Below are positions 41,987 through 52,149 of a stretch of DNA of 64,000 bases, in pieces (position 1 is the first letter of the stretch; each line of letters begins with the position of its first letter). This DNA is from a virus, in the IMG/VR virus record IMGVR_UViG_3300021138_000019, positions 10,033 to 74,032 of that record. The stretch is one strand, 5' to 3'. The notes below the pieces were generated by a model. It was not told the origin of the DNA and did no database searches. It saw only the letters and a list, made by a program, of their open reading frames with translations. The position numbers and the translations under genes are program-made.

Positions 41987-42031
41987 AGATTACATTTGTT
42001 GAAAATAAAAAATATATTATGAGGTTTTGAA

Positions 42032-42421
42032 ATGCCGGACATGTTTAAGGAGATTATACCCTCCATACTCCAAACTAAGAAATGTGTAATAAATGACGAA
42101 GTAGACCGTAAGGATTATAAGTCATTTATCATCAACCGTTCCTTGTCTTATCACAGCGATTGTGTATTGTTTGTCAATGAAATCAACAAGTTCCCTGAAC
42201 TTGATGTGGATATGCAATACCAGTATCTTCTAAATACCATCAGACCCATGAAACGGAAATTTCAACCGTGGCAAAAGTCTGATAAAGAAAAGAATATTGA
42301 TGTAGTGAAAGAGTTCTTTGGCTACTCAAATGCTAAGGCCAAAGAGGCTTTACGTATTCTTACCGATGAGCAAATCGCTGAAATAAAAATAAGAATAGAT
42401 AAAGGCGGAATGAAAAAATGA
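42032..42421 (+). CDS. gp62: clamp loader small subunit gp62
   Basis: FIINRSLS, QYQYLLNTIR, FGYS..KAKEAL.IL. Confidence 0.93.
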   Translation: MPDMFKEIIPSILQTKKCVINDEVDRKDYKSFIINRSLSYHSDCVLFVNEINKFPELDVDMQYQYLLNTIRPMKRKFQPWQKSDKEKNIDVVKEFFGYSNAKAKEALRILTDEQIAEIKIRIDKGGMKK

Positions 42422-42825
42422 TTAATATTACCGATTTAGTTGAGGTGACTTTGAATGAAAAAGATGATTTTCTCAAGGTCAGAGAGACTCTAACTCGTAT
42501 CGGTGTAGCATCCAAAAAAGACAGAACATTATACCAATCTTGTCATATATTGCACAAGAAAGGTCTTTACTACTTAGTGCACTTCAAGGAATTGTTCGCA
42601 CTTGATGGAAAGCCTACCGATATCACAGAAAACGATTTATCTCGTAGGAACGCCATTGCAAACCTATTAGAGGATTGGGGTCTGATTAAGATTGTCAAAA
42701 AAGAACAAACGGCAACGCCAGAACCAATCTTTTTGTCGCAAGTCAAAATACTATCTCACAAAGAAAAGAATGATTGGCAATTAGTACCGAAATATAATAT
42801 CGGTAAAAAACCTCAAAAGGATTGA
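42418..42825 (+). CDS. regA: translational repressor RegA
   Basis: DDFLKVRETLTRIGVAS, LYQSCHILHK, HFKELF.LDG. Confidence 0.97.
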   Translation: MINITDLVEVTLNEKDDFLKVRETLTRIGVASKKDRTLYQSCHILHKKGLYYLVHFKELFALDGKPTDITENDLSRRNAIANLLEDWGLIKIVKKEQTATPEPIFLSQVKILSHKEKNDWQLVPKYNIGKKPQKD

Positions 42826-42832
42826 TTTCTGA

Positions 42833-42840
42833 TATAAATA
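42833..42840 (+). promoter_or_regulatory. late promoter upstream of hsp20
   Basis: TATAAATA. Confidence 0.75.
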
Positions 42841-42911
42841 CTGATATAATTATTGTGTCGTGCCAATTTTGGGCGACAATTTTAACAACTCGCTTTTTTA
42901 GGAGCAAAAAA

Positions 42912-43355
42912 ATGACAAGTATATTAAACACATTGGAAAACTTTCACAAATCTTTCGATCCATTTGCAATTGGATTTAATGACATATTTGACCAAATCAA
43001 AGTCGCATCAAAATCAATTCCAGGATATCCTCCATACAATATCAAACAAGTTAAAGAAAACAAGTATGTCATTGAAATGGCAGTCGCTGGTTTTGCTAAA
43101 ACTGATATAGACGTTTCTCTTGAAGGAAATAAATTAGTAATTAAAGCAAATGCTAAAGAAGATCCGGAAATGGAAAACTCATACTTGTATAAAGGAATTG
43201 CGGCAAGAAACTTTGAACGTCAGTTCACATTAGCAGACAAAGTGGAAATTAAAGATGCGGAATTAGTAAATGGTATGCTTAAAATATGGCTAGAGAATAT
43301 GGTTAAAGCACAAGATCTAGTTACGAAAATTTCAGTCAAAACTAAAAATGAATAA
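42912..43355 (+). CDS. small heat shock protein Hsp20 (IbpA-like)
   Basis: YPPYNI, IEMAVAGF, GIAARNFERQFTLA, NGML; AGGAG RBS. Confidence 0.95.
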   Translation: MTSILNTLENFHKSFDPFAIGFNDIFDQIKVASKSIPGYPPYNIKQVKENKYVIEMAVAGFAKTDIDVSLEGNKLVIKANAKEDPEMENSYLYKGIAARNFERQFTLADKVEIKDAELVNGMLKIWLENMVKAQDLVTKISVKTKNE

Positions 43356-43425
43356 TTGGTGGCCAGTATCTGATGAAGAGTGGGAACAGCAAAACTATCC
43401 CGAACGATTCCGAAATAAAAAATAA
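43348..43425 (+). CDS. putative 25-aa peptide MNNWWPVSDEEWEQQNYPERFRNKK
   Basis: Overlaps the hsp20 stop and fills the gap before the hairpin; not in the ORF track. Confidence 0.5.
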   Translation: MNNWWPVSDEEWEQQNYPERFRNKK

Positions 43426-43441
43426 TTTTGGTAAATAACAT

Positions 43442-43461
43442 GGGGGGTCTTAAGACCCCCT
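43442..43461 (+). terminator. GC-rich hairpin, probable terminator
   Basis: GGGGGTC-TTAA-GACCCCC with a weak U tract. Confidence 0.6.
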
Positions 43462-43486
43462 ATGTTGTTGTAGAATAGTAAATATT

Positions 43487-43690
43487 ATGAAAACTCAAAA
43501 CCCTAAACTAATTGAATTGCGTTCAAAAACTAATATTTTCCAAATTTATTGGACTTATTCTTCTTGGGACGAAAAGGAAATTGATGGAGAAATGTTCACT
43601 CCTGTGACTAAATTTATGCCACATCCAGATAAAATTACAGAACTACACTATGTAAAAACAAGTAGTTTGGAAAGAGTTGTAGAATTTTAA
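43487..43690 (+). CDS. hypothetical protein
   Basis: 67-aa ORF in operon orientation. Confidence 0.55.
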   Translation: MKTQNPKLIELRSKTNIFQIYWTYSSWDEKEIDGEMFTPVTKFMPHPDKITELHYVKTSSLERVVEF

Positions 43691-43701
43691 AGGAAGAAAT
43701 A

Positions 43702-44211
43702 ATGCATCTAAAAATCTTAAATTGTCCTGATAGAGAATTTAAACCATTTATAAAAGATGCAGTAAATTACTTTGCATCCGAATTAATTACTAATAAAAGA
43801 ATAAGAAATAATTGTCATCTTACAATAAGATTTGATGCTAAATTAGAAAATTATGGCACTGCTTTTGTTGAAGAATGCAATAGCAAAAACCAACCAAGAG
43901 TATTCAAAATTGAATTGCATCCGGGTATTGGCGTGAGAAATATATTTTCAACATTAGCACATGAAATGGTACATGTGAAACAATATTTGAATGATGAACT
44001 AAATGAGGAAATGACCTTGTGGAAAGGCAAAAAAGTAGATTCTGACAATATGGATTACTGGATACATCCATGGGAAATCGAGGCCTCTGGTATTGAAGTG
44101 GGGTTATTATATAAATATACTGTACAGAATCAATTATGGAATATTTTTGAAGAATTCAAAGATCCTGTTACTCCTATAGTATCTATACCAATTAAGTGGA
44201 AAAAAATATAA
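43702..44211 (+). CDS. HEXXH zinc metallopeptidase-like protein
   Basis: LAHEMVHVKQ, PWEIEA. Confidence 0.8.
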   Translation: MHLKILNCPDREFKPFIKDAVNYFASELITNKRIRNNCHLTIRFDAKLENYGTAFVEECNSKNQPRVFKIELHPGIGVRNIFSTLAHEMVHVKQYLNDELNEEMTLWKGKKVDSDNMDYWIHPWEIEASGIEVGLLYKYTVQNQLWNIFEEFKDPVTPIVSIPIKWKKI

Positions 44212-44213
44212 AA

Positions 44214-44312
44214 ATGTTTACGAAACCGACATACCATACTAATTGTCGCACAGAGATTTGCGATAATGAATCATGGGCCTTGCAAAAAAGGGGTTTCTGT
44301 ATAAGTTTTTAG
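44214..44312 (+). CDS. putative attenuator leader peptide (32 aa) MFTKPTYHTNCRTEICDNESWALQKRGFCISF
   Basis: ATG 2 nt after the upstream stop; 3' end overlaps the antiterminator arm; 19 of 20 amino acids used. Confidence 0.7.
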   Translation: MFTKPTYHTNCRTEICDNESWALQKRGFCISF

Positions 44313-44337
44313 TCCAAGAAATTATACACAAACCCCT
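44289..44337 (+). promoter_or_regulatory. antiterminator hairpin
   Basis: AGGGGTTTcTGTATAA (44289-44304) pairs with TTATACAcAAACCCCT (44322-44337), 15 of 16 bp. Confidence 0.8.
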
Positions 44338-44365
44338 AGCGTAACACCTAGGGGTTTTTTGTTTT
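44330..44365 (+). terminator. intrinsic terminator (attenuator) before the tRNA array
   Basis: AAACCCCTAG-cgtaacac-CTAGGGGTTT then TTTGTTTT. Confidence 0.88.
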
Positions 44366-44374
44366 CAGATATGT

Positions 44375-44450
44375 GTACGTGTGACCCGAAAGGCTAGGGG
44401 GCAGATTGCAAATCTGTTTTATGTAGGTTCGATTCCTATCACGTACTCCA
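44375..44450 (+). tRNA. tRNA-Cys(GCA)
   Basis: GTACGTG/CACGTAC acceptor, GCAGA-ttGCAaa-TCTGT, GTTCGA, CCA. Confidence 0.92.
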
Positions 44451-44482
44451 AAATTATTTTGTTGTAATCTTGCAACAAAGTG

Positions 44483-44511
44483 TTGACAAATGATTTTTAG
44501 TATGTTATACT
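44483..44511 (+). promoter_or_regulatory. sigma70-type promoter inside the tRNA array
   Basis: TTGACA-17bp-TATACT with TG extension. Confidence 0.85.
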
Positions 44512-44517
44512 AGAGTC

Positions 44518-44533
44518 TGTTCTTTAAAAATTT
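44518..44533 (+). promoter_or_regulatory. boxA-like antitermination element
   Basis: TGTTCTTTAAAAATTT just after the promoter; resembles rrn boxA TGCTCTTTAACA. Confidence 0.65.
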
Positions 44534-44545
44534 GAAGTAGTTTAT

Positions 44546-44621
44546 GCTCGGTTCATCTAGAGGCCTAGGATAGTGCCCTTTCACGGCATTCACACCGGTT
44601 CGAATCCGGTACCGAGTACCA
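44546..44621 (+). tRNA. tRNA-Glu(TTC)
   Basis: GCTCGGT/ACCGAGT, GTGCC-ctTTCac-GGCAT, CCA. Confidence 0.93.
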
Positions 44622-44741
44622 TTTGTTTTGCTGATGTAAGCCATGGGGTAAACGTCAACCCTGAGTAACTATATTAATAAACGGTAGTGTGGCCACCAAT
44701 TCCGTTGAGGTATAGCAAATAGTGCGTCAGCAAAACAAATG
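44620..44741 (+). ncRNA. putative structured RNA closed by a long stem
   Basis: CATTTGTTTTGCTGATGTA ... TGCGTCAGCAAAACAAATG with internal sub-hairpins. Confidence 0.55.
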
Positions 44742-44746
44742 ATTTT

Positions 44747-44823
44747 GGTCCCATAGTATAGCCTGGTTATTACAGCGGCTTGTCACGCCGTCAACAGGGG
44801 TTCGAATCCCCTTGGGACCGCCA
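44747..44823 (+). tRNA. tRNA-Asp(GTC)
   Basis: GGTCCCA/TGGGACC, GCGGC-ttGTCac-GCCGT, CCA. Confidence 0.93.
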
Positions 44824-44841
44824 AAAAAGAAGATAGTATAT

Positions 44842-44920
44842 TCCCTGGAATTCGAGCATGGTGCACGGACTTGACTGTTAATCAATGATTAGCTGGGATC
44901 GTTACCCAGACAGGGAGCCA
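44842..44920 (+). tRNA. tRNA-Asn(GTT), atypical
   Basis: TCCCTG/CAGGGA, TTGA-ctGTTaa-TCAA, T-loop ATCGTTA, CCA. Confidence 0.8.
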
Positions 44921-44925
44921 AATAA

Positions 44926-45004
44926 CTCGGTGTAGGATAGTCTGGTTCATTCCACCTGTTTTGGGAACAGGAAATCGCAAGTTCAAATCTTGCCACCGAG
45001 ACCA
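44926..45004 (+). tRNA. tRNA-Pro(TGG)
   Basis: CTCGGTG/CACCGAG, CCTGT-ttTGGga-ACAGG, CCA. Confidence 0.92.
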
Positions 45005-45010
45005 ATTAAT

Positions 45011-45095
45011 GGATGTGCCGCCGTAATGGTATGGCAGGAGATTGTAAATCTTCCGGTTTACACCACAGTTGGTTCGATCCCAACCACATCCACCA
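45011..45095 (+). tRNA. tRNA-Tyr(GTA)
   Basis: GGATGTG/CACATCC, GGAGA-ttGTAaa-TCTTC, long variable arm, CCA. Confidence 0.9.
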
Positions 45096-45116
45096 TTAAC
45101 CTTATTAAGGATAATT

Positions 45117-45359
45117 ATGAATTACATAATTACATTTTTAGCAGTATTCATTACAGATATCTTGTATTGTTTTTTTATAAAAGCAATGAACGAAGATAAA
45201 ATGTTTCTTGCAAGTATTTGGAGTTGCTTAGTAACATTGGCCGCAAGTGTAGCGGCAATCAATTATATTGATGACCATACAATGATAATTGCATCTGTAT
45301 TAGGTGCGTTTTGCGGCACTTACGTTGCAATGAAGTTGAAAAAGAAATTATTGCCCTAA
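45117..45359 (+). CDS. small membrane protein (about 3 TM segments)
   Basis: AAGGA RBS; hydrophobic 80-aa ORF; 3' end overlaps tRNA-Thr. Confidence 0.7.
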   Translation: MNYIITFLAVFITDILYCFFIKAMNEDKMFLASIWSCLVTLAASVAAINYIDDHTMIIASVLGAFCGTYVAMKLKKKLLP

Positions 45360-45426
45360 TAGTATAGTGGTATTACAACGGATTTGTAATCCGTTGACGG
45401 GAGTTCGATTCTCTCTTGGGGCACCA
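45353..45426 (+). tRNA. tRNA-Thr(TGT)
   Basis: GCCCTAA/TTGGGGC, ACGGA-ttTGTaa-TCCGT, CCA. Confidence 0.92.
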
Positions 45427-45491
45427 TATAGAAACACACTCATTAAGGCATCCGGTACGAAAGTAAATTTGGCCGAGTGTGTTTCTATATG
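45425..45491 (+). ncRNA. long hairpin/structured spacer RNA
   Basis: Perfect 17-bp stem CATATAGAAACACACTC/GAGTGTGTTTCTATATG enclosing TAC-GAAA-GTA. Confidence 0.55.
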
Positions 45492-45496
45492 TAATT

Positions 45497-45570
45497 CTCT
45501 CGCAAGTGTTCCGGTAGCACAAGGTTCTCCAAAAGCCTTGGACGGGGTTCGATTCCCTGGCGGGAGGCCA
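45497..45570 (+). tRNA. tRNA-Trp(CCA)
   Basis: CTCTCGC/GCGGGAG, AGGTT-ctCCAaa-AGCCT, CCA. Confidence 0.88.
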
Positions 45571-45571
45571 A

Positions 45572-46159
45572 TTATTCTATGAGTCCGGTAATCTGTTGAA
45601 TAGCTTCAATAGCATCAGACGAATAAAAATAGTCTAATAAATTTTCAGACATAAGATTAAGAATTTCGATTCTTCTTTCCATATTCTTTAAGGTATTTTT
45701 TAAGTTGTCAATATGGTTCTGTGTGAATTTTTGCAATATATTTTCTTTTTTCCTAGACTTGATTCGCACTACAATCATTTCAAATTTTTTGATATCTCTC
45801 GTAACATTGCCAATATTGTTATTAACATTTTTTATAGCCTCAATAATATCACCTTTCATCATCATAATTAAATCATCATTAATAGGATCCATTTTATTAA
45901 TAAAATGCATTGTGAGTTGAGCAAGTTCATTAAGAACTTCTGCATTAATATCGTAAGTTTGATTTACTGTACCAGTGGCATCATAATGGGCACGTTTATC
46001 AGGATCACTTAGTGTCTCATACGCCATTTTAATTTTTTTAAATTTCTCTTCTTCACCTCCTTTATCTGGATGATGTATCTGAGCTAACAAACGATAAGCG
46101 TGTTTAATTTCTTCACTTGTTGCATCTGGTGAAATTCCCAGTTGTTTGTATAAATCCAT
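45572..46159 (-). CDS. DnaJ (J-domain) protein
   Basis: DLYKQLGI..A..EEIKHAYR.LA...HPDKGG; HPD motif; C-terminal coiled coil. Confidence 0.9.
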   Translation of the reverse strand: MDLYKQLGISPDATSEEIKHAYRLLAQIHHPDKGGEEEKFKKIKMAYETLSDPDKRAHYDATGTVNQTYDINAEVLNELAQLTMHFINKMDPINDDLIMMMKGDIIEAIKNVNNNIGNVTRDIKKFEMIVVRIKSRKKENILQKFTQNHIDNLKNTLKNMERRIEILNLMSENLLDYFYSSDAIEAIQQITGLIE

Positions 46160-46213
46160 GATGTTTAAATAAGTAGTAGTTAGATATTTATTGTTGTTAA
46201 AGGAAGATGTTTT

Positions 46214-46690
46214 ATGAGAGATTTTGATATAAAAGTAGTCAAAGATTTTATTTTGGCTCAAGGACCGGATACAAAAGTATATCTAGGTGCCGACTCGGAA
46301 CGTCTTAGAATTAATGGTGTATGGTATGCTGACTATGCACTTGCGGTTGTTGTTCACATTGATGGTTGCCATGGTTGTAAAATTTTTGGTTTTGTTGACC
46401 GTGAATTAGATTACGATCACAAAAAAAGTAAACCAGCAATGCGTTTGATGACAGAAGTATATAAAGTGTCTGAATTGTTTCAAGAAATGTCGGATGTTCT
46501 AGAAGACCGTCACGTTGAAGTACATTTAGATTTAAACAAATCGGATGAATTCGGTTCTTCTTGCGTTGTGCAACAAGCAATTGGGTACATCAAAGGTACA
46601 TGTGATATTACTCCGATGGTAAAACCAGATGCACCTGCCGCAAGTTTTTGTGCCGACAGATTAAAAAGAATCTTGGCCGAACAAATATAA
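46214..46690 (+). CDS. RNase H-like protein (YkuK/DUF458-like)
   Basis: VYLGADS, RLMTEV, EVHLDLN, KPDAPAASFCAD. Confidence 0.75.
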   Translation: MRDFDIKVVKDFILAQGPDTKVYLGADSERLRINGVWYADYALAVVVHIDGCHGCKIFGFVDRELDYDHKKSKPAMRLMTEVYKVSELFQEMSDVLEDRHVEVHLDLNKSDEFGSSCVVQQAIGYIKGTCDITPMVKPDAPAASFCADRLKRILAEQI

Positions 46691-46695
46691 ATAAT

Positions 46696-46772
46696 GGAGA
46701 CTATAGTGTAACGGTTTAGCACCCGACTCTGTGAAAGTCGTAGAATGGGTTCGTCTCCCATTAGTCTCCCCA
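46696..46772 (+). tRNA. tRNA-His(GTG)
   Basis: G-1:C73, GAGACTA/TAGTCTC, CGACT-ctGTGaa-AGTCG; late promoter TATAAATA at 46686-46693. Confidence 0.92.
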
Positions 46773-46791
46773 AACTTTGTTAAGGAAAATT

Positions 46792-47064
46792 ATGAAAATA
46801 GGTGGTATCTATTATGATGTTATTCATAAAACAAATGAAGAACTGAATGGTAATGTTGGTCTTGCAGATTTCAATAGACAAGAAATTAGCATTAACACAG
46901 AGCATACAATGCAAACTCAAAGGATTGCTTTAATACATGAAGTTTTGCACATTTTGGATAATACCTATAATCTTAAGTTAACTGAAGAACAAGTAACTTT
47001 TACTGCACACGCATTAGTAAGTTTAATTGAAGATAACAAAGAGTTTTTGAAAAGTTTTTTATAA
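46792..47064 (+). CDS. small HEXXH metallopeptidase-like protein
   Basis: LIHEVLH; AAGGA RBS. Confidence 0.65.
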   Translation: MKIGGIYYDVIHKTNEELNGNVGLADFNRQEISINTEHTMQTQRIALIHEVLHILDNTYNLKLTEEQVTFTAHALVSLIEDNKEFLKSFL

Positions 47065-47073
47065 AGGAATATT

Positions 47074-47319
47074 ATGTACACACCCCTGCATGACAAGATT
47101 ATCGTTCAACGACTTGAAAAAGTCAATCAAACTGATTCGGGTATCATACTCAAATCTTCACCAGAACCAGACAGAGCAAAAGTTATTGCTGTAGGACCTG
47201 ATGTTGAAGAAGTTGCAATCGGTGAAGAGATTCTAGTAAATTGGAACGGTGCAATCAAAGTCAAAGATGACATATACACATTAAAAGTAGAGCATGTTGT
47301 TGGTGTTTTCGAATCTTAA
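47074..47319 (+). CDS. groES: co-chaperonin GroES-like
   Basis: PLHDKIIV, TDSGIIL, AKVIAVGP. Confidence 0.9.
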   Translation: MYTPLHDKIIVQRLEKVNQTDSGIILKSSPEPDRAKVIAVGPDVEEVAIGEEILVNWNGAIKVKDDIYTLKVEHVVGVFES

Positions 47320-47347
47320 TAAATATCAATTTAACTGTTAAAACATC

Positions 47348-47893
47348 ATGTCACATAGAGAACAACGAGATTTTATTACCAGACTCAAAGAAAAATTCCC
47401 AAATAATTTCAAAAACATTAAAATGCTTGAAATCGGTAGTCTAGATATAAATGGATCTATTAGAGATTATTTTGAAAACTGCAACTATATTGGTTATGAT
47501 GTTGGTGAAGGAAAACTCGTTGATGTTGTTTATGACGGTATCACATTCAGGGCAGAAGATATAGAATTTGATACTACCGGAAGTTGTAATTGTTTTGAGC
47601 ATAATCCTAATTGGGTATCTAATTTTAAAGATATGCACAGAATATTAAAATCTGGTGGCTTGCATTTTATATCTGTACCGACAACAGGATGCCCTGAACA
47701 TGGTACGGAAAAACAAAACTCTAGTGATAGTCCTTTGACAATTGTAAAAGGTGAAGGATGGAAAGATTATTATAAGAATCTAACGGAAGAAGACTTCAGA
47801 GAAAACTTTAATTTAGGTGAAATGTTTAGTGAATATAAATTTGAAGTAAACAATGAGGTTCACGATTTATATTTTTTCGGTATTAAAAAATAA
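47348..47893 (+). CDS. class I SAM-dependent methyltransferase
   Basis: LEIGSLDING, FEHNP, LKSGG. Confidence 0.8.
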   Translation: MSHREQRDFITRLKEKFPNNFKNIKMLEIGSLDINGSIRDYFENCNYIGYDVGEGKLVDVVYDGITFRAEDIEFDTTGSCNCFEHNPNWVSNFKDMHRILKSGGLHFISVPTTGCPEHGTEKQNSSDSPLTIVKGEGWKDYYKNLTEEDFRENFNLGEMFSEYKFEVNNEVHDLYFFGIKK

Positions 47894-47967
47894 GCGGGAT
47901 TAGTTAAATGGTAGAACGGGACCTTGCCAAGGTTCGGACACGAGTTCGATTCTCGTATCCCGCTCCA
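47894..47967 (+). tRNA. tRNA-Gly(GCC)
   Basis: GCGGGAT/ATCCCGC, GGACC-ttGCCaa-GGTTC, CCA. Confidence 0.93.
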
Positions 47968-48011
47968 AATTTTCATAAAAGTTTCATAGTGAAAACGACT
48001 ATATAGTATAT

Positions 48012-48085
48012 AGCGGGTTAGTAAAACAGAATTACGGAGGACTCATAATCCTCAGTTCCTGGTGCGACTCCGGGACCCGCATCCA
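48012..48085 (+). tRNA. tRNA-Met(CAT), initiator-like 1:72 mismatch
   Basis: AGCGGGT/ACCCGCA, GAGGA-ctCATaa-TCCTC, atypical T-loop TGCGACT, CCA. Confidence 0.8.
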
Positions 48086-48113
48086 AACTACTTTAAATTT
48101 AGGTGAACAATTA

Positions 48114-49163
48114 ATGTCAAAAGTTTTGTTTCTTCTCAAGCGCAGGGAAGATTATCATAGTATAACGCATTCAAATATCGGTTTAAGTACCGGCTTATAC
48201 AATTCGGCAAGTTTCATGTATGAAATGCTGAACAATAATGGTGTGCAATCAAAATTAGTTGTATGTATAGATAATAATTGTATTGACCGTGAAGTCAATA
48301 TATATAAACCAACTCATGTAATTATTGAAGCTCTTTGGGTAACACCAACCAAGTTTGCAATACTACAAAAGTTGCATCCTTCAGTTAAGTGGATTATCAG
48401 ATTACATTCTGAATTACCATTTATGGCAGGTGAAGGTATTGCTATGGATTGGATTGCCGAATATTCAACCTATAAAAATGTTGTTATTGCATGTAATGCA
48501 CCACGAATGTTACATGACATGAGGGTGTATGTAAAAGAACATTTTGGGTTTAGAATTTGTAAAATTGAAGAAAAGATTGTATATTTACCAAATTATTACC
48601 CGCAAGAATTTGATATTAAAAAATTAGATACTAAAAAAGAATTTGTTGATGTTGGTTGTTTTGGTGCTATAAGACCGCTTAAAAATCATTTATCACAAGC
48701 ACTAGGCGCATTACAATTTGCTAATCGAATAAAAAAGAAATTGAGATTTCATGTCAATGCCGGACGTATTGAAATGAAAGGTGAGCCAATGATTAATAAT
48801 CTAAAATCTTTTTTTATACAGGTTAATGATACCGGACATCAACTGATAAACCATCAATGGACTCCTAGAGATAATTTTACCGAATTGTGTTCAAAAATGG
48901 ATATTGGTTTGCAGGTAAGTTTTTCGGAAACTTTTAATATTGTTGGGGCAGATTTCGTATCTCAAGGAGTACCATTTGTTGGGTCTTTAGAAATACCGTG
49001 GATGTCAAATACTTTTGCCGCAGATCCTACTGACACAAAAGATATTGCCAGAAAATTAGAATTGGCGTATACATGGCCTCGTCTAAATACATGGTTAAAT
49101 AGAAAGAGTCTCAAAAATTATACTGATGAGACCCTTACTATATGGTTAAAATATTTTAAATAA
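48114..49163 (+). CDS. GT-B fold glycosyltransferase-like protein
   Basis: GAIRPLKN, SETFNIVGAD (E-x7-D/E type motif). Confidence 0.7.
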   Translation: MSKVLFLLKRREDYHSITHSNIGLSTGLYNSASFMYEMLNNNGVQSKLVVCIDNNCIDREVNIYKPTHVIIEALWVTPTKFAILQKLHPSVKWIIRLHSELPFMAGEGIAMDWIAEYSTYKNVVIACNAPRMLHDMRVYVKEHFGFRICKIEEKIVYLPNYYPQEFDIKKLDTKKEFVDVGCFGAIRPLKNHLSQALGALQFANRIKKKLRFHVNAGRIEMKGEPMINNLKSFFIQVNDTGHQLINHQWTPRDNFTELCSKMDIGLQVSFSETFNIVGADFVSQGVPFVGSLEIPWMSNTFAADPTDTKDIARKLELAYTWPRLNTWLNRKSLKNYTDETLTIWLKYFK

Positions 49164-49172
49164 GGAAAACAA

Positions 49173-49364
49173 ATGTCACATCACATGGTAAAAAAACACA
49201 AATGGGTTGGTGGTGTTTTAGAATCTTCTTCACATTTTTTTGATTCTTTTGAAAGTGCTAAGGAATTTTTAAATACACAAGATGCTGATACGTTGAAAAT
49301 TTTTAATGCTAATGGTGAATTAGTTCACGAATTAGTCACAACAACCAACACATCCATATCCTGA
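49173..49364 (+). CDS. hypothetical protein
   Basis: AAGGA RBS, 63 aa. Confidence 0.6.
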   Translation: MSHHMVKKHKWVGGVLESSSHFFDSFESAKEFLNTQDADTLKIFNANGELVHELVTTTNTSIS

Positions 49365-49399
49365 TAACTTTTTTTAATTTGCTTTGATGATTAATTTTT

Positions 49400-49579
49400 A
49401 TGAATATTCCAATAAAATTAACGCTCGATCAAATGCATCTCACAACAAAACTTTTAGAACTTTTAGAAGAAGTAGAACACGCCGGTAAATTCTTATTTTA
49501 TTGCTTCGTGTTTTTTCTGGGTATAACAATTAGCGTACTATTAATCCTCTTTTGGGCTTTCAAAAATAGGTTTCTTTGA
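49400..49579 (+). CDS. putative 59-aa single-TM protein
   Basis: Fills the intergenic gap; FLFYCFVFFLGITISVLLILFWAF; weak RBS; not in the ORF track. Confidence 0.4.
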   Translation: MNIPIKLTLDQMHLTTKLLELLEEVEHAGKFLFYCFVFFLGITISVLLILFWAFKNRFL

Positions 49580-50347
49580 TTTTTCAATATACTCTAAGAT
49601 CTCCCTCTTTCTCAATTCCTCTAATTTATATTGATTAGTGTGTTGAAAAAGACTGGGATATCTTTTTTGTGCATCATGTGCAATATAAGCGAAAACGCAA
49701 CTCATTGAAAATATTATAACAAGTAATACACCACCAAAATACGCATCGGCTCGTAGATGTTGCATAAAGATAGCCTTTCTTCTTGCATCCGCCGCTTCCA
49801 TTTTCATTTTTCTAGCGATGAGAATTTTTTCTTGTTCCCCAAGCTCCTCCATCATTTTATTCACATCAGTCCACAAAGCACCAAGTTCAGGCGGACTTTG
49901 ATAAACTACTAGCTCACGCAAATCAACACTCATTTGCTGTAATTTCTTTTTCATTAAGACTCGTTGCAACGCACGTTTACCTAAACTGGCGTCACCTTCA
50001 TAAATATGAGTTTTTGCATACTTTTCTTCCTCAGCTAAAACGGTTTGGCATTTATAAAATGCGTCAAAAAATTCACCGAGCCTTTCACCAATTTCAGAAT
50101 AAATATCATCAGTATCCCCACCTTTTTTGTTTAACTCAATTATTTCATTTTTCTTTTCGATTAATTGTTTTCGTTGTTCATTCGTTGCAGGTTTATCTTT
50201 ATGGTGGTCGTGGAACTGCTTATCAAGATCGTCAAGAACTTCTTTTACGTTCCCTGCCGCACCTTTGATATCTTTGTAGAGTTGACAACCTTTTTTGACA
50301 GCCGCAACAGCGGCATTCGCCATAGCGAATAATGTTATTGGATCCAT
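49541..50347 (-). CDS. hypothetical coiled-coil protein with C-terminal TM segment
   Basis: 268 aa, MDPITLFAMANAAVAAVK N-terminus, hydrophobic segment near the C-terminus. Confidence 0.7.
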   Translation of the reverse strand: MDPITLFAMANAAVAAVKKGCQLYKDIKGAAGNVKEVLDDLDKQFHDHHKDKPATNEQRKQLIEKKNEIIELNKKGGDTDDIYSEIGERLGEFFDAFYKCQTVLAEEEKYAKTHIYEGDASLGKRALQRVLMKKKLQQMSVDLRELVVYQSPPELGALWTDVNKMMEELGEQEKILIARKMKMEAADARRKAIFMQHLRADAYFGGVLLVIIFSMSCVFAYIAHDAQKRYPSLFQHTNQYKLEELRKREILEYIEKSKKPIFESPKED

Positions 50348-50410
50348 TTAAAGAGTTATAATTACCAGACATTAATAATCAAATTTCATGGTAAAGATAA
50401 CAAGAACTGC

Positions 50411-50439
50411 TTGACAGTTCAGACGATTTCATATATAAT
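50411..50439 (+). promoter_or_regulatory. consensus sigma70 promoter for tRNA-Gly and the gp43 operon
   Basis: TTGACA-17bp-TATAAT. Confidence 0.9.
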
Positions 50440-50458
50440 AGACAATCTATCTATTTAT

Positions 50459-50532
50459 GCGTGGTTAGTTTAATGGTAGAATTAGAGCCTTCCAAGCTCA
50501 AGACAAGGGTTCGATTCCCTTACCACGCTCCA
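50459..50532 (+). tRNA. tRNA-Gly(TCC)
   Basis: GCGTGGT/ACCACGC, GAGC-ctTCCaa-GCTC, CCA. Confidence 0.92.
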
Positions 50533-50548
50533 ACATTATAAGGTTATT

Positions 50549-50863
50549 ATGAGTATACAAGTTTTGAAATTAGTGACAGGTGAAGAAGTTCTTGGTGATA
50601 TAGAAAGATTGTCACCAATATCTCATTATAAAGTTAAAAATCCGGTAGGCATCTCAATTGTTCGTGGTAAAGATGGACAACCAAACATCGGATTTTCACC
50701 GTTTCCACTACATGCGGAACAAATAAAAGATTCAACTATTGACATCCCAAGTACATCCATAGTATACTCATACACACCAGCACAAGATTTTATTGACAAC
50801 TATAATCAAGTATTTGGTTCAGGTATCGTATTACCAAAACAGAAAGAAATTATTCTAGGATGA
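50549..50863 (+). CDS. conserved hypothetical protein upstream of gp43
   Basis: LKLVTGEEVL...YNQVFGSGIVLP. Confidence 0.65.
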   Translation: MSIQVLKLVTGEEVLGDIERLSPISHYKVKNPVGISIVRGKDGQPNIGFSPFPLHAEQIKDSTIDIPSTSIVYSYTPAQDFIDNYNQVFGSGIVLPKQKEIILG

Positions 50864-52149
50864 ACTTCTACACAAGCGTTCACGTTATCGGCAATAACGT
50901 AATGTTTCGAGGTATTAGAAATGGTAAAAGAGTTAAACAAAGAATTGAATACTCGCCATCTCTATATCTTGAAACAAAAAAAGATTCCAAATACAAAAGT
51001 CTGCAAGGTCTAAACTTAGAGCAAAGAAAATTCGAAACTATCCGTGATGCTAGAGACTTTCTAGACAATTGGCGAGATGTTTCTAATGCGCCTAAGATAT
51101 ATGGTCAGGCTCGTTTCGAATATGCATATATCACAGACCATTATCCTGATCTGATTGATTATGACTTTGAACAGTTAAGAGTTGCCGTAATTGATATCGA
51201 GGTCGGTTCAGAGAATGGCTTTCCTGACCCATACGAAGCGACAGAACCCATCACAGCGATTTGTATTCAATGGGTCAATGGTAAGACTTATGTGTTTGGT
51301 TGTGGCGACTATGAAACTAAAGGTAACGAAATCTATGTGAAGTGTAAAGATGAATACGAACTTTGCAAAAAATTCGTAATGCTATGGGCTGAAGACCCGC
51401 CAGATATTCTATCCGGCTGGTACATGAAAGACTTTGATGTGCCTTATCTCGTCAATCGGTTTAGGCGTATTGTGGGGGATGATTTCGCAAAACAATTATC
51501 CCCATGGAACATAATCAAAGAACGCAAAACTATTATTAACGGTAAACAAGTTCTTTATTATGAACTTCTTGGAGTTTCCTGTTTAGATTACATTGATTTA
51601 TATAAGTGGTATGCTCCTAACGGTAAGTCGCAAGAAAATTATCGCTTAGAAACTATTGCTCAAGTTGAATTGGGTGAAGGTAAGTTATCATATGATGAAT
51701 ATGATAATCTTCACACATTGTATAGGCTCGACTATCAAAAATTCATAGAGTACAACATCAAAGACGTTGGTCTTGTAATGAGACTTGAAGAGAAGTTGAA
51801 GTTACTTGAACTTGCCATTTCTTTGACATATGATACAAAATCAAATTACGATGATGTGTTTGCACAGACTCGTATGTGGGATGCATTAACTTATTCTTAC
51901 CTAAAAGAGAAAGATATCATTGTACCGCCACGTATCGTCAAAGATAAGAACATGGCATTTGAAGGTGCTTATGTAAAAGAACCGCAAGTAGGTTTCCATG
52001 AATATGTTGTGTCATTCGATTTGAATTCTCTGTATCCTCACCTTATGATGCAGTATTCCATAAGTCCTGAAAACCTTGTGGAAAGAAGTTATATTTCCGA
52101 AAGAAAACAAAAACTGATTGAGGAGTTAAAGTTGAGAAACACTAAATAA
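50860..52149 (+). CDS. gp43: family B DNA polymerase gp43, N-terminal part (exonuclease + motif A)
   Basis: IDIEV, FDVPYL, YNIKDV exonuclease motifs; SFDLNSLYP. Confidence 0.95.
   Translation: MNFYTSVHVIGNNVMFRGIRNGKRVKQRIEYSPSLYLETKKDSKYKSLQGLNLEQRKFETIRDARDFLDNWRDVSNAPKIYGQARFEYAYITDHYPDLIDYDFEQLRVAVIDIEVGSENGFPDPYEATEPITAICIQWVNGKTYVFGCGDYETKGNEIYVKCKDEYELCKKFVMLWAEDPPDILSGWYMKDFDVPYLVNRFRRIVGDDFAKQLSPWNIIKERKTIINGKQVLYYELLGVSCLDYIDLYKWYAPNGKSQENYRLETIAQVELGEGKLSYDEYDNLHTLYRLDYQKFIEYNIKDVGLVMRLEEKLKLLELAISLTYDTKSNYDDVFAQTRMWDALTYSYLKEKDIIVPPRIVKDKNMAFEGAYVKEPQVGFHEYVVSFDLNSLYPHLMMQYSISPENLVERSYISERKQKLIEELKLRNTK

Follow-up and report, generated by a model that had tools for sequence, protein, structure and literature searches.

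Enterobacterial leader-peptide attenuators include trpL, hisL, pheL, leuL, thrL and ilvL, as well as the pheM leader of pheST. In the classical attenuator, the position of the ribosome on the leader picks the hairpin that is formed, and a stall caused by the scarcity of an aminoacyl-tRNA leads to read-through of the terminator. The question of why phages carry tRNA arrays is an old one and, to our knowledge, the control of the expression of these arrays is largely undescribed. Phage tRNA arrays have been tied to the evasion of tRNA-targeting defences (PMC10264068, PMC11555353). In Anabaena sp. PCC 7120, the long supernumerary tRNA array of the trn operon is induced under translational stress (PMC8421152), with TrcR, a ribbon-helix-helix repressor, as its regulator (PMC10272220). 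The first of these reports (PMC8421152, from 2021) makes no mention of an attenuator, a leader peptide or a terminator.

Here we describe a leader placed in front of a phage tRNA array. The element is real and conserved and, judging from its sequence, it is apparently an undescribed form of leader-peptide attenuation; a literature search found no published description of such a phage tRNA-array leader. It lies in what we call the window, the whole stretch of 64,000 nt that was analysed, whose source record is a 74-kb uncultured lake virus, T4-like by its gene content.

Architecture of the leader in the window

The locus contains the following features:

43702..44211, + strand: upstream gene of 169 amino acids with an HEMVH motif (phrog_10499), with homologues in L001-L004
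44214..44312, + strand: leader ORF, 32 codons followed by TAG (44310-12)
44242..44267, + strand: mid-ORF hairpin with a 9-bp stem and an 8-nt loop
44289..44304, + strand: antiterminator 5′ arm, made by the final codons of the leader ORF
44322..44337, + strand: antiterminator 3′ arm, whose final 8 nt double as the start of the terminator stem
44330..44365, + strand: intrinsic terminator with a GC-rich 10-bp stem (44330-39 / 44348-57), an 8-nt loop and a T-run to 44365
44375..44450, + strand: tRNA-Cys(GCA), called by ARAGORN and Rfam
44483..44534, + strand: second control layer, formed by a promoter, TTGACA-17-TATACT (44483-44511), and then a boxA-like TGTTCTTTAAAAATTTG (44518-44534)

Most of this arrangement had been proposed in an earlier note on the same DNA, and it was borne out by the analysis. 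The ORF at 44214-44312 has 32 codons and uses 19 of the 20 amino-acid types, with Val missing. The inverted repeat 44289-44304 / 44322-44337 is paired at 15 of its 16 positions, and its hairpin has an energy of -19.9 kcal/mol. The terminator (44330-44357 plus the T-run), which is the best terminator-like site of the region, has AAACCCCT in common with the antiterminator 3′ arm, and tRNA-Cys starts shortly 3′ of it, as had been said. The leader RNA as a whole folds well above shuffled sequences (z = -5.0). On the 3′ side, the promoter at 44483-44511 is followed by the boxA-like motif, tRNA-Glu and the remaining array, in this order. Between the terminator and the next promoter, tRNA-Cys stands alone, and it can be transcribed only by read-through.

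Database searches of the region returned little other than tRNAs. By blastn, the closest DNA matches of 43700-44700 are Aeromonas and Vibrio T4-like phages, via tRNA-Glu only, and nothing beyond the tRNA-Glu gene matched cultured phages. A cmscan of 42000-52000 at E<=1 gave no Rfam family at 44214-44365, neither a T-box nor any other leader; its output consisted of tRNAs, a sub-threshold ROSE_3 match and one chance plastid hit. Three leader peptides had no PHROG match at E<=1, and a tblastn search of 50,697 phage records with the leader peptide yielded nothing better than chance hits (E=4).

Some other observations were made around the leader. A palindrome, TTGTTG..CAACAA (44457-44479), lies a few nt 5′ of the -35 box of the promoter of the tRNA array and is kept at the equivalent place in L004, L006, L017 and L104; it may be a regulator site or an upstream hairpin. 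The segment 44622-44700, 3′ of tRNA-Glu, is nearly identical to positions 4222-4302 of L001, although the flanking protein is only 73% identical, and L001 carries about 265 additional nt between tRNA-Glu and this matching segment. The ROSE_3 thermometer match (42854-42917; 29.3 bits vs a gathering score of 43, E=0.008) precedes an Hsp20-like ORF (42822-43355). Finally, ARAGORN calls a tRNA-Trp(CCA) at 45497-45570, where the Rfam tRNA model is silent at E<=1.

A family of leaders at the edge of phage tRNA arrays

The leader element forms a family that is present in about 60 uncultured T4-like freshwater phage contigs, with one copy apiece. With an nhmmer profile, 67 loci were each found to contain a single copy, and the window was matched at 44221-44365 (E=2e-19); loci are cited here by L numbers. 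All the copies with downstream sequence are located at the 5′ edge of a tRNA array on the same strand. An ORF of 29-42 codons, the pairing of the arms, a terminator with compensatory changes and a near-complete amino-acid coverage are conserved across the family. Short ORFs with alternate hairpins upstream of the tRNA arrays of relatives, which the earlier note had anticipated, were therefore found, with a terminator that covaries and an antiterminator whose covariation is thin.

Members of the family were recovered independently by their coding and their RNA features. A scan keyed to ORF motifs alone returned 10 distinct loci, all with arms and terminator, and two more ORF-based patterns, applied to viral and metagenome collections, gave about 35 distinct elements. 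A scan keyed to the two RNA arms alone recovered the sister of the window (L084-86) and, additionally, much more divergent members (L088, L089, L092, L094, L095, L098, L100, L102, L103 and L104). Thus, the ORF-motif-only and the arms-only scans both recover the same complete element. Among prokaryotes (one genome per species), 68 matches to the arm pattern were examined and rejected; they look like chance because none of the 68 has a terminator, and the nhmmer profile missed them.

The distribution of the element is not uniform among the relatives of the window. L001-L003 are the closest ones by the upstream gene (73% identity); according to the nhmmer profile and to locus inspection, the leader element is absent from them, and tRNA-Cys starts 4 nt after the stop codon of the upstream gene. 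The homologous small ORF, the arm pairing and the terminator are present in L004, whose upstream gene is 59% identical. A different 32-codon ORF, rich in Cys, His and Trp, and a GC-rich hairpin occur in L001 (3685-3830), and also in L002 and L003, between tRNA-Cys and the promoter of the array.

Concerning the RNA, the terminator covaries: 99.4% of cells are paired across 35 sequences of the family, four pairs show compensatory changes and none of 500 shuffles was as good. The core of the antiterminator is 92% paired, and the changes in its non-coding 3′ arm are one-sided and wobble-compatible. Covariation of the antiterminator is thin (two pairs with double changes) because the 5′ arm is nearly invariant. 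Compared with shuffles, the arm duplex has z values of -2 to -4 in the window (z=-2.7), L004 and L008-type elements, and of only -0.4 to -1.7 in the L006, L007, L011 and L017 groups. In the main clade, the antiterminator extends over almost the whole 5′ half of the terminator stem.

Folding reproduces the two-state picture that had been proposed from the window. Leaving the end of the ORF free yields the antiterminator (-18 to -26 kcal/mol) in all lineages, and in most of them it outcompetes the terminator even in the full-length RNA. When the RNA is masked to 12-15 nt past the stop codon, which mimics a terminating ribosome, the terminator (-12 to -24 kcal/mol) forms instead. Switching between both structures is thus what these folding models predict. 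An anti-antiterminator (1:2 helix) was looked for twice, and the duplex between the upstream ORF and the arm is no better than shuffles in most lineages, with a nominal signal only in L104, L017 and L007. The mid-ORF hairpin appears in relatives as TATCGC...GCGATA, 99.5% paired but invariant, and L089 and L104 have hairpins of different sequence at its place; it is possibly a pause hairpin for RNA polymerase.

The relation between the ORF and the arm is best seen by comparing the window with its sister. They differ by a 1-nt indel in the A-run at 44284-89, and the arm is consequently read in different frames (..GFCISF vs ..GVSV), with ORFs that end in the arm or 6 nt beyond it. As the arm is kept while the frames reading it differ, it is conserved as RNA. 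The pN/pS of about 0.8 in the main-clade codons of the arm points the same way. Throughout the family, the ORF ends in or just past the antiterminator 5′ arm, even where the frame differs, and the conserved property of the ORF would be that ribosomes traverse the arm.

The genes placed after the terminator vary. In L088, L089, L092, L095 and L098, the T-run is immediately followed by the boxA-like motif (TGTTCTTTAAAAATTT) and the first tRNA starts about 12 nt later; no promoter fits between the terminator and the tRNAs, and the sole promoter precedes the leader. Thus, several lineages have the order promoter, leader, terminator, boxA-like motif and tRNAs, without any other promoter. Given that the tRNAs behind the terminator lack another promoter, it must be passable in L088, L089, L092 and L095. 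Directly 3′ of the terminator there is a tRNA-Cys in the window, a tRNA-Pro in the main clade and a Ser-like tRNA in L084, L094 and L103, and in all of these a second strong promoter and the same boxA-like motif serve the rest of the array. In L004, L007, L011, L017 and L104, such a promoter comes straight after the terminator. Since many arrays, that of the window included, possess a strong promoter past the terminator, the contribution of the attenuator to tRNA transcription may be only a minor one. The earlier note had supposed that the promoter at 44483 might restrict strict control to tRNA-Cys; this holds in the window, but not for the family, as in several relatives the whole array lies behind the terminator.

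Two further observations concern the start of these arrays. A Ser-UGA-like tRNA-like sequence, with a long variable arm and ..CTTGAAAAC.. in the anticodon loop, follows the terminator in L084 (about 2830-2925), and tRNA-like sequences with ..CTTGAAAAC.. are found at the equivalent place in L094, L103 and L004 (4090-4165); ARAGORN makes no call in these loci. The boxA-like TGTTCTTTAAAAATTTG opens the tRNA transcript in the window and, placed immediately 5′ of the first tRNA, in L004, L088, L089, L092, L095 and L098. It closely matches UGCUCUUUAACAA, which we take to be the boxA of the E. coli rrn operons, and its location at the head of the transcript suggests an rrn-type antitermination on the tRNA array. 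The likeness to the rrn-type boxA system (NusB/NusE) is limited to this motif; it differs from the attenuator in being a separate, neighbouring element, which would act on polymerases that are already past it.

These data bear on the simplest alternative, namely that the ORF is an ordinary small phage protein gene that lies with its own terminator, by chance, beside a tRNA array, the pairing of the arms having no regulatory role. In its favour, tiny proteins with a function occur in many phages, the main-clade peptide shows both conservation and purifying selection, several arrays possess a promoter of their own past the terminator, and L001-L003 do without the element. However, sister phages that keep the RNA arm differ in the frame that encodes the C-terminal residues, and the peptides diverge down to 11-45% identity while the arms stay identical. 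Furthermore, the tRNAs of L088, L089, L092 and L095 are placed behind the terminator without another promoter, a peptide acting in trans gives no reason for the use of all 20 amino acids, and there is no match in PHROG or in cultured phages. Consequently, we regard this explanation as decidedly unlikely.

Coding signals and amino-acid coverage

Translation of the leader ORF is suggested by several coding signals. Frame 0 is open in 19 of 19 representatives, the alternative frames having mostly stops, and the changes in length are in-frame (deletions of 3 and 6 nt). In the main clade, pN/pS is 0.41 overall, 0.38 in codons 2-13, 0.06 in codons 14-24 (pN 0.007 vs pS 0.124) and about 0.8 in the codons of the arm. 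Sigma-70-type promoters lie directly 5′ of the leader in many lineages. For instance, L088 has TTGACA-17-TATAAT, a 35-nt leader, an AAGGA (SD) and a GTG start, and L089 has TTGACA-17-TATAGT with the ATG only 6 nt later, which suggests a leaderless mRNA; L092 and L095 are similar to it. In main-clade loci (e.g., L008, L009 and L089), the leader ATG is preceded at 0-3 nt by the end of a conserved CATATATAGTATT-like motif, which in L089 is the -10 of the TTGACA-17 promoter. The main-clade leader mRNAs may be leaderless as well, or begin inside the ATG. In the window, only 2 nt separate the stop codon of the upstream gene (44209-11) from the leader ATG, which suggests a translational coupling of the leader to this gene.

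A structured non-coding leader or small RNA of about 150 nt to the terminator, acting for example as a processing or antitermination platform for the tRNA precursor, with an incidental ORF, would account for the strong structure of the leader (z=-5), for the conservation of the mid-ORF hairpin and the arms at the nucleotide level, for the adjoining boxA-like element and for a promoter-like motif that, in the main clade, is so near the ATG that transcription may begin at this codon or within it. The coding signals make such a role less likely: in spite of in-frame indels and a compensated frame change, the reading frame has remained open, third-position variation is synonymous, and the amino-acid coverage is non-random. 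There is no Rfam match either, and we consider this alternative highly improbable.

The feature of the ORF that most requires an explanation is its amino-acid content. For the 19 types found in the 32 residues of the window leader, the probability is about 0.7% according to the ORFs of its own phage group. Among 42 distinct leader peptides, 23 have all 20 types, 12 have 19, six have 18 and one has 17; windows of 31 residues from phage ORFs of the same contigs have a mean of 14.2-14.6 types, and the chance of finding all 20 in 31 residues is about 5-7e-5, on the order of 1e-4. Lineages that are 11-45% identical to one another all hold 18-20 types. A per-lineage test was done with 14 representatives, many of them only 11-45% identical. 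The probability of at least the observed count ranged from 7e-5 to 3e-2 against phage ORFs, from 5e-4 to 4e-2 with uniform codon usage and from 1.5e-3 to 1e-1 with the pooled composition of the leaders themselves.

Neither common descent nor the arm accounts for this coverage. When 15-20 of the 31 positions of a 20/20 peptide were redrawn, the 20 types were kept in 0.25-0.6% of trials and at least 19 in 3-6%; since redrawing so seldom keeps 20/20, the coverage is not accounted for by inheritance from a 20/20 ancestor. Nor is it due to the residues that the arm encodes (Gly, Val and Cys), as 18-20 types are already present in the 25-28 codons that precede the arm in 12 of the 14 representatives with a stretch of this length (17 in L084 and 16 in L102). 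Unique residues relocate rather than vanish. In the main clade, for instance, the single Gln trades places with Glu or Pro, and a Leu missing from position 4 is regained at 27; Tyr and Gln each occupy different positions in the window and in its sister. Shuffling the columns of the main clade lowers the number of 20/20 peptides from 15 to 8.7 (P<1e-4, a value inflated by relatedness). A reading of the Q/E swap as RNA base-pair covariation was discarded, as no helix fits. The coverage is incomplete in some members, in which Phe, Leu, Lys, Ala or Pro is missing, and Val is usually encoded only within the arm, where it would not be sensed. In the window, the codons before the arm cover 18 types, and Gly is specified by the arm alone. 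There are no codon runs, and the 18-20 types appear about once or twice each.

The composition of the leader does not follow that of the array. The earlier note had counted 14 of codons 5-21 (17 codons) as specifying amino acids with tRNAs downstream; the actual count is 12 of 17, because the record has no tRNA-Asn (ARAGORN and Rfam detected none, either in the window or elsewhere in its record, which comprises 10 kb more). Over the whole ORF of the window, 15 of 31 codons have a downstream tRNA, an unremarkable figure compared with the approximately 41% expected from the composition of the proteome, and the array of the window has no tRNA for 10 amino acids. A correspondence between leader codons and the tRNAs of each array was not seen in the family either: in 12 loci with at least 4.5 kb downstream there are 45 amino-acid-by-locus cases of a leader residue without a matching tRNA, and the few residues missing from leaders do not match the tRNAs missing from arrays. 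As leader composition is independent of the tRNA set of the array, the sensor, if there is one, is general. The interpretation given in the earlier note is, therefore, partly supported: the attenuator geometry and the multi-codon coverage hold in silico across about a dozen divergent lineages, and the match to array content does not.

Codon choice is also peculiar. ACG, CCG, CGC and TGC, already noticed as unusual for this genome, are indeed non-preferred codons in this phage, and so is GAG (RSCU 0.30-0.47 for the five); the synonymous codons of leaders are less preferred than those of gene windows from the same contigs. Constraints from RNA structure could contribute to this choice.

The centre of the peptide is more conserved than a pure codon sampler needs. 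The motif YRTFSDNGSW characterizes the main clade, and its D, N, S and W are retained in the window, its sister, L004, L017, L094 and L103; this conservation is, however, partly forced by the search patterns. A role at the protein level via metal or disulfide sites was dropped, as only one Cys is invariant. It might be thought, instead, that translation is coupled to attenuation through another signal, either because the nascent peptide (..YR..DN.SW..) arrests the ribosome in response to one ligand or condition, or because the switch reports initiation, the coverage being incidental. The strong purifying selection on codons 14-24 in the main clade and the retention of D, N, S and W agree with this proposal, and so does the geometry, as the 5′ arm would stay unoccupied if the ribosome were arrested around codon 23. 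Yet the lineages found by their arms only (L088, L089, L092, L102 and L104) have no such motif and keep the length of the ORF, the arm, the terminator and 18-20 amino-acid types, and the coverage is beyond chance. This behaviour of divergent lineages weakens both the arrest or initiation explanation, which we consider unlikely, and the small-protein one discussed above.

Proposed mechanism and comparison with known systems

The explanation that we consider on balance probable is that the leader is a ribosome-mediated, two-state transcription attenuator placed before a phage tRNA array, which would read elongation at codons of nearly all amino acids. Its parts, with their conservation, energetics and position, and the non-random amino-acid coverage were observed in silico; from them, we infer that the ORF is translated, that the structures switch and what triggers the switch. 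In this model, the leader ORF would offer about one codon for nearly every amino acid, its last codons would double as the antiterminator 5′ arm, and the antiterminator 3′ arm would take up the 5′ half of the terminator. When translation proceeds smoothly to the stop codon, the ribosome would unwind and cover the 5′ arm while the terminator is being made, and transcription would stop. By contrast, when a scarce, uncharged or cleaved aminoacyl-tRNA makes the ribosome lag or stall at any codon upstream of the stop, the antiterminator would form first and the polymerase would continue into the tRNA genes. Thus, transcription is probably let into the tRNA genes when ribosomes slow at almost any codon and, given that related phages keep the same design, the phage probably couples slowed ribosomes to the transcription of its tRNA genes. 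An absent ribosome would also produce read-through, as expected from the lack of support for a 1:2 anti-antiterminator. In the window, read-through would strictly control tRNA-Cys only, adding to the output of the promoter at 44483, and in several relatives it would control the whole array.

A further, more tentative possibility, which we rather doubt at present, is that the leader works as a surveillance device for the whole tRNA pool. The depletion or cleavage of any tRNA by a host anticodon nuclease, by another tRNA-targeting defence or by phage-induced host shut-off would stall the leader ribosome and switch on the replacement array. The leader would then be an inducible counter-defence with translation as its sensor; the link to anticodon nucleases is conjectural.

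If the attenuator model is true, this would be the first attenuator that responds to decoding capacity in general and not to a single amino acid, as well as the first case of tRNA genes controlled by a leader peptide, and it would provide the phage with a host-independent feedback loop that links tRNA supply to the speed of translation. A sharp prediction follows from the model for each of the 20 amino acids, and the element could be of use in synthetic biology as a compact natural sensor of translation elongation.

Among the known systems, the Anabaena trn array is the nearest published functional analogue that was found, being also a tRNA array switched on when translation is impaired. It differs in its control by a repressor and in belonging to a cyanobacterial host rather than to a phage. 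T-box riboswitches also act by antitermination in response to the charging status of tRNA and control genes of the translation apparatus but, unlike the phage leader, they bind uncharged tRNA directly, without a leader ORF, and each senses one tRNA species. Arrest-peptide leaders such as TnaC, SecM and SpeFL share with it a small, conserved leader peptide and the control of downstream expression by the state of translation. However, they need a specific peptide motif and a ligand, whereas the peptides of the phage leaders diverge to 11-45% identity while the coverage and the arms persist.

The closest resemblance is to the trp/his-type attenuators, in which a short leader ORF also precedes a pair of mutually exclusive hairpins, antiterminator and terminator, placed immediately before the regulated genes. 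A leader ORF with coding signals, an intrinsic terminator and an overlapping antiterminator were all found in silico in the phage element; the 1:2 anti-antiterminator of the classical attenuators is not supported in it, and clustered regulatory codons are not present. Additionally, the phage leader is phage-borne, its regulated genes are tRNAs and not biosynthetic enzymes, and the stop codon of its ORF lies inside or just after the antiterminator 5′ arm. Above all, where the trp/his-type leaders have a run of regulatory codons, the phage leader has about one or two codons per amino acid, and it is this nearly full set in place of codon clusters that sets it apart from the known attenuators.
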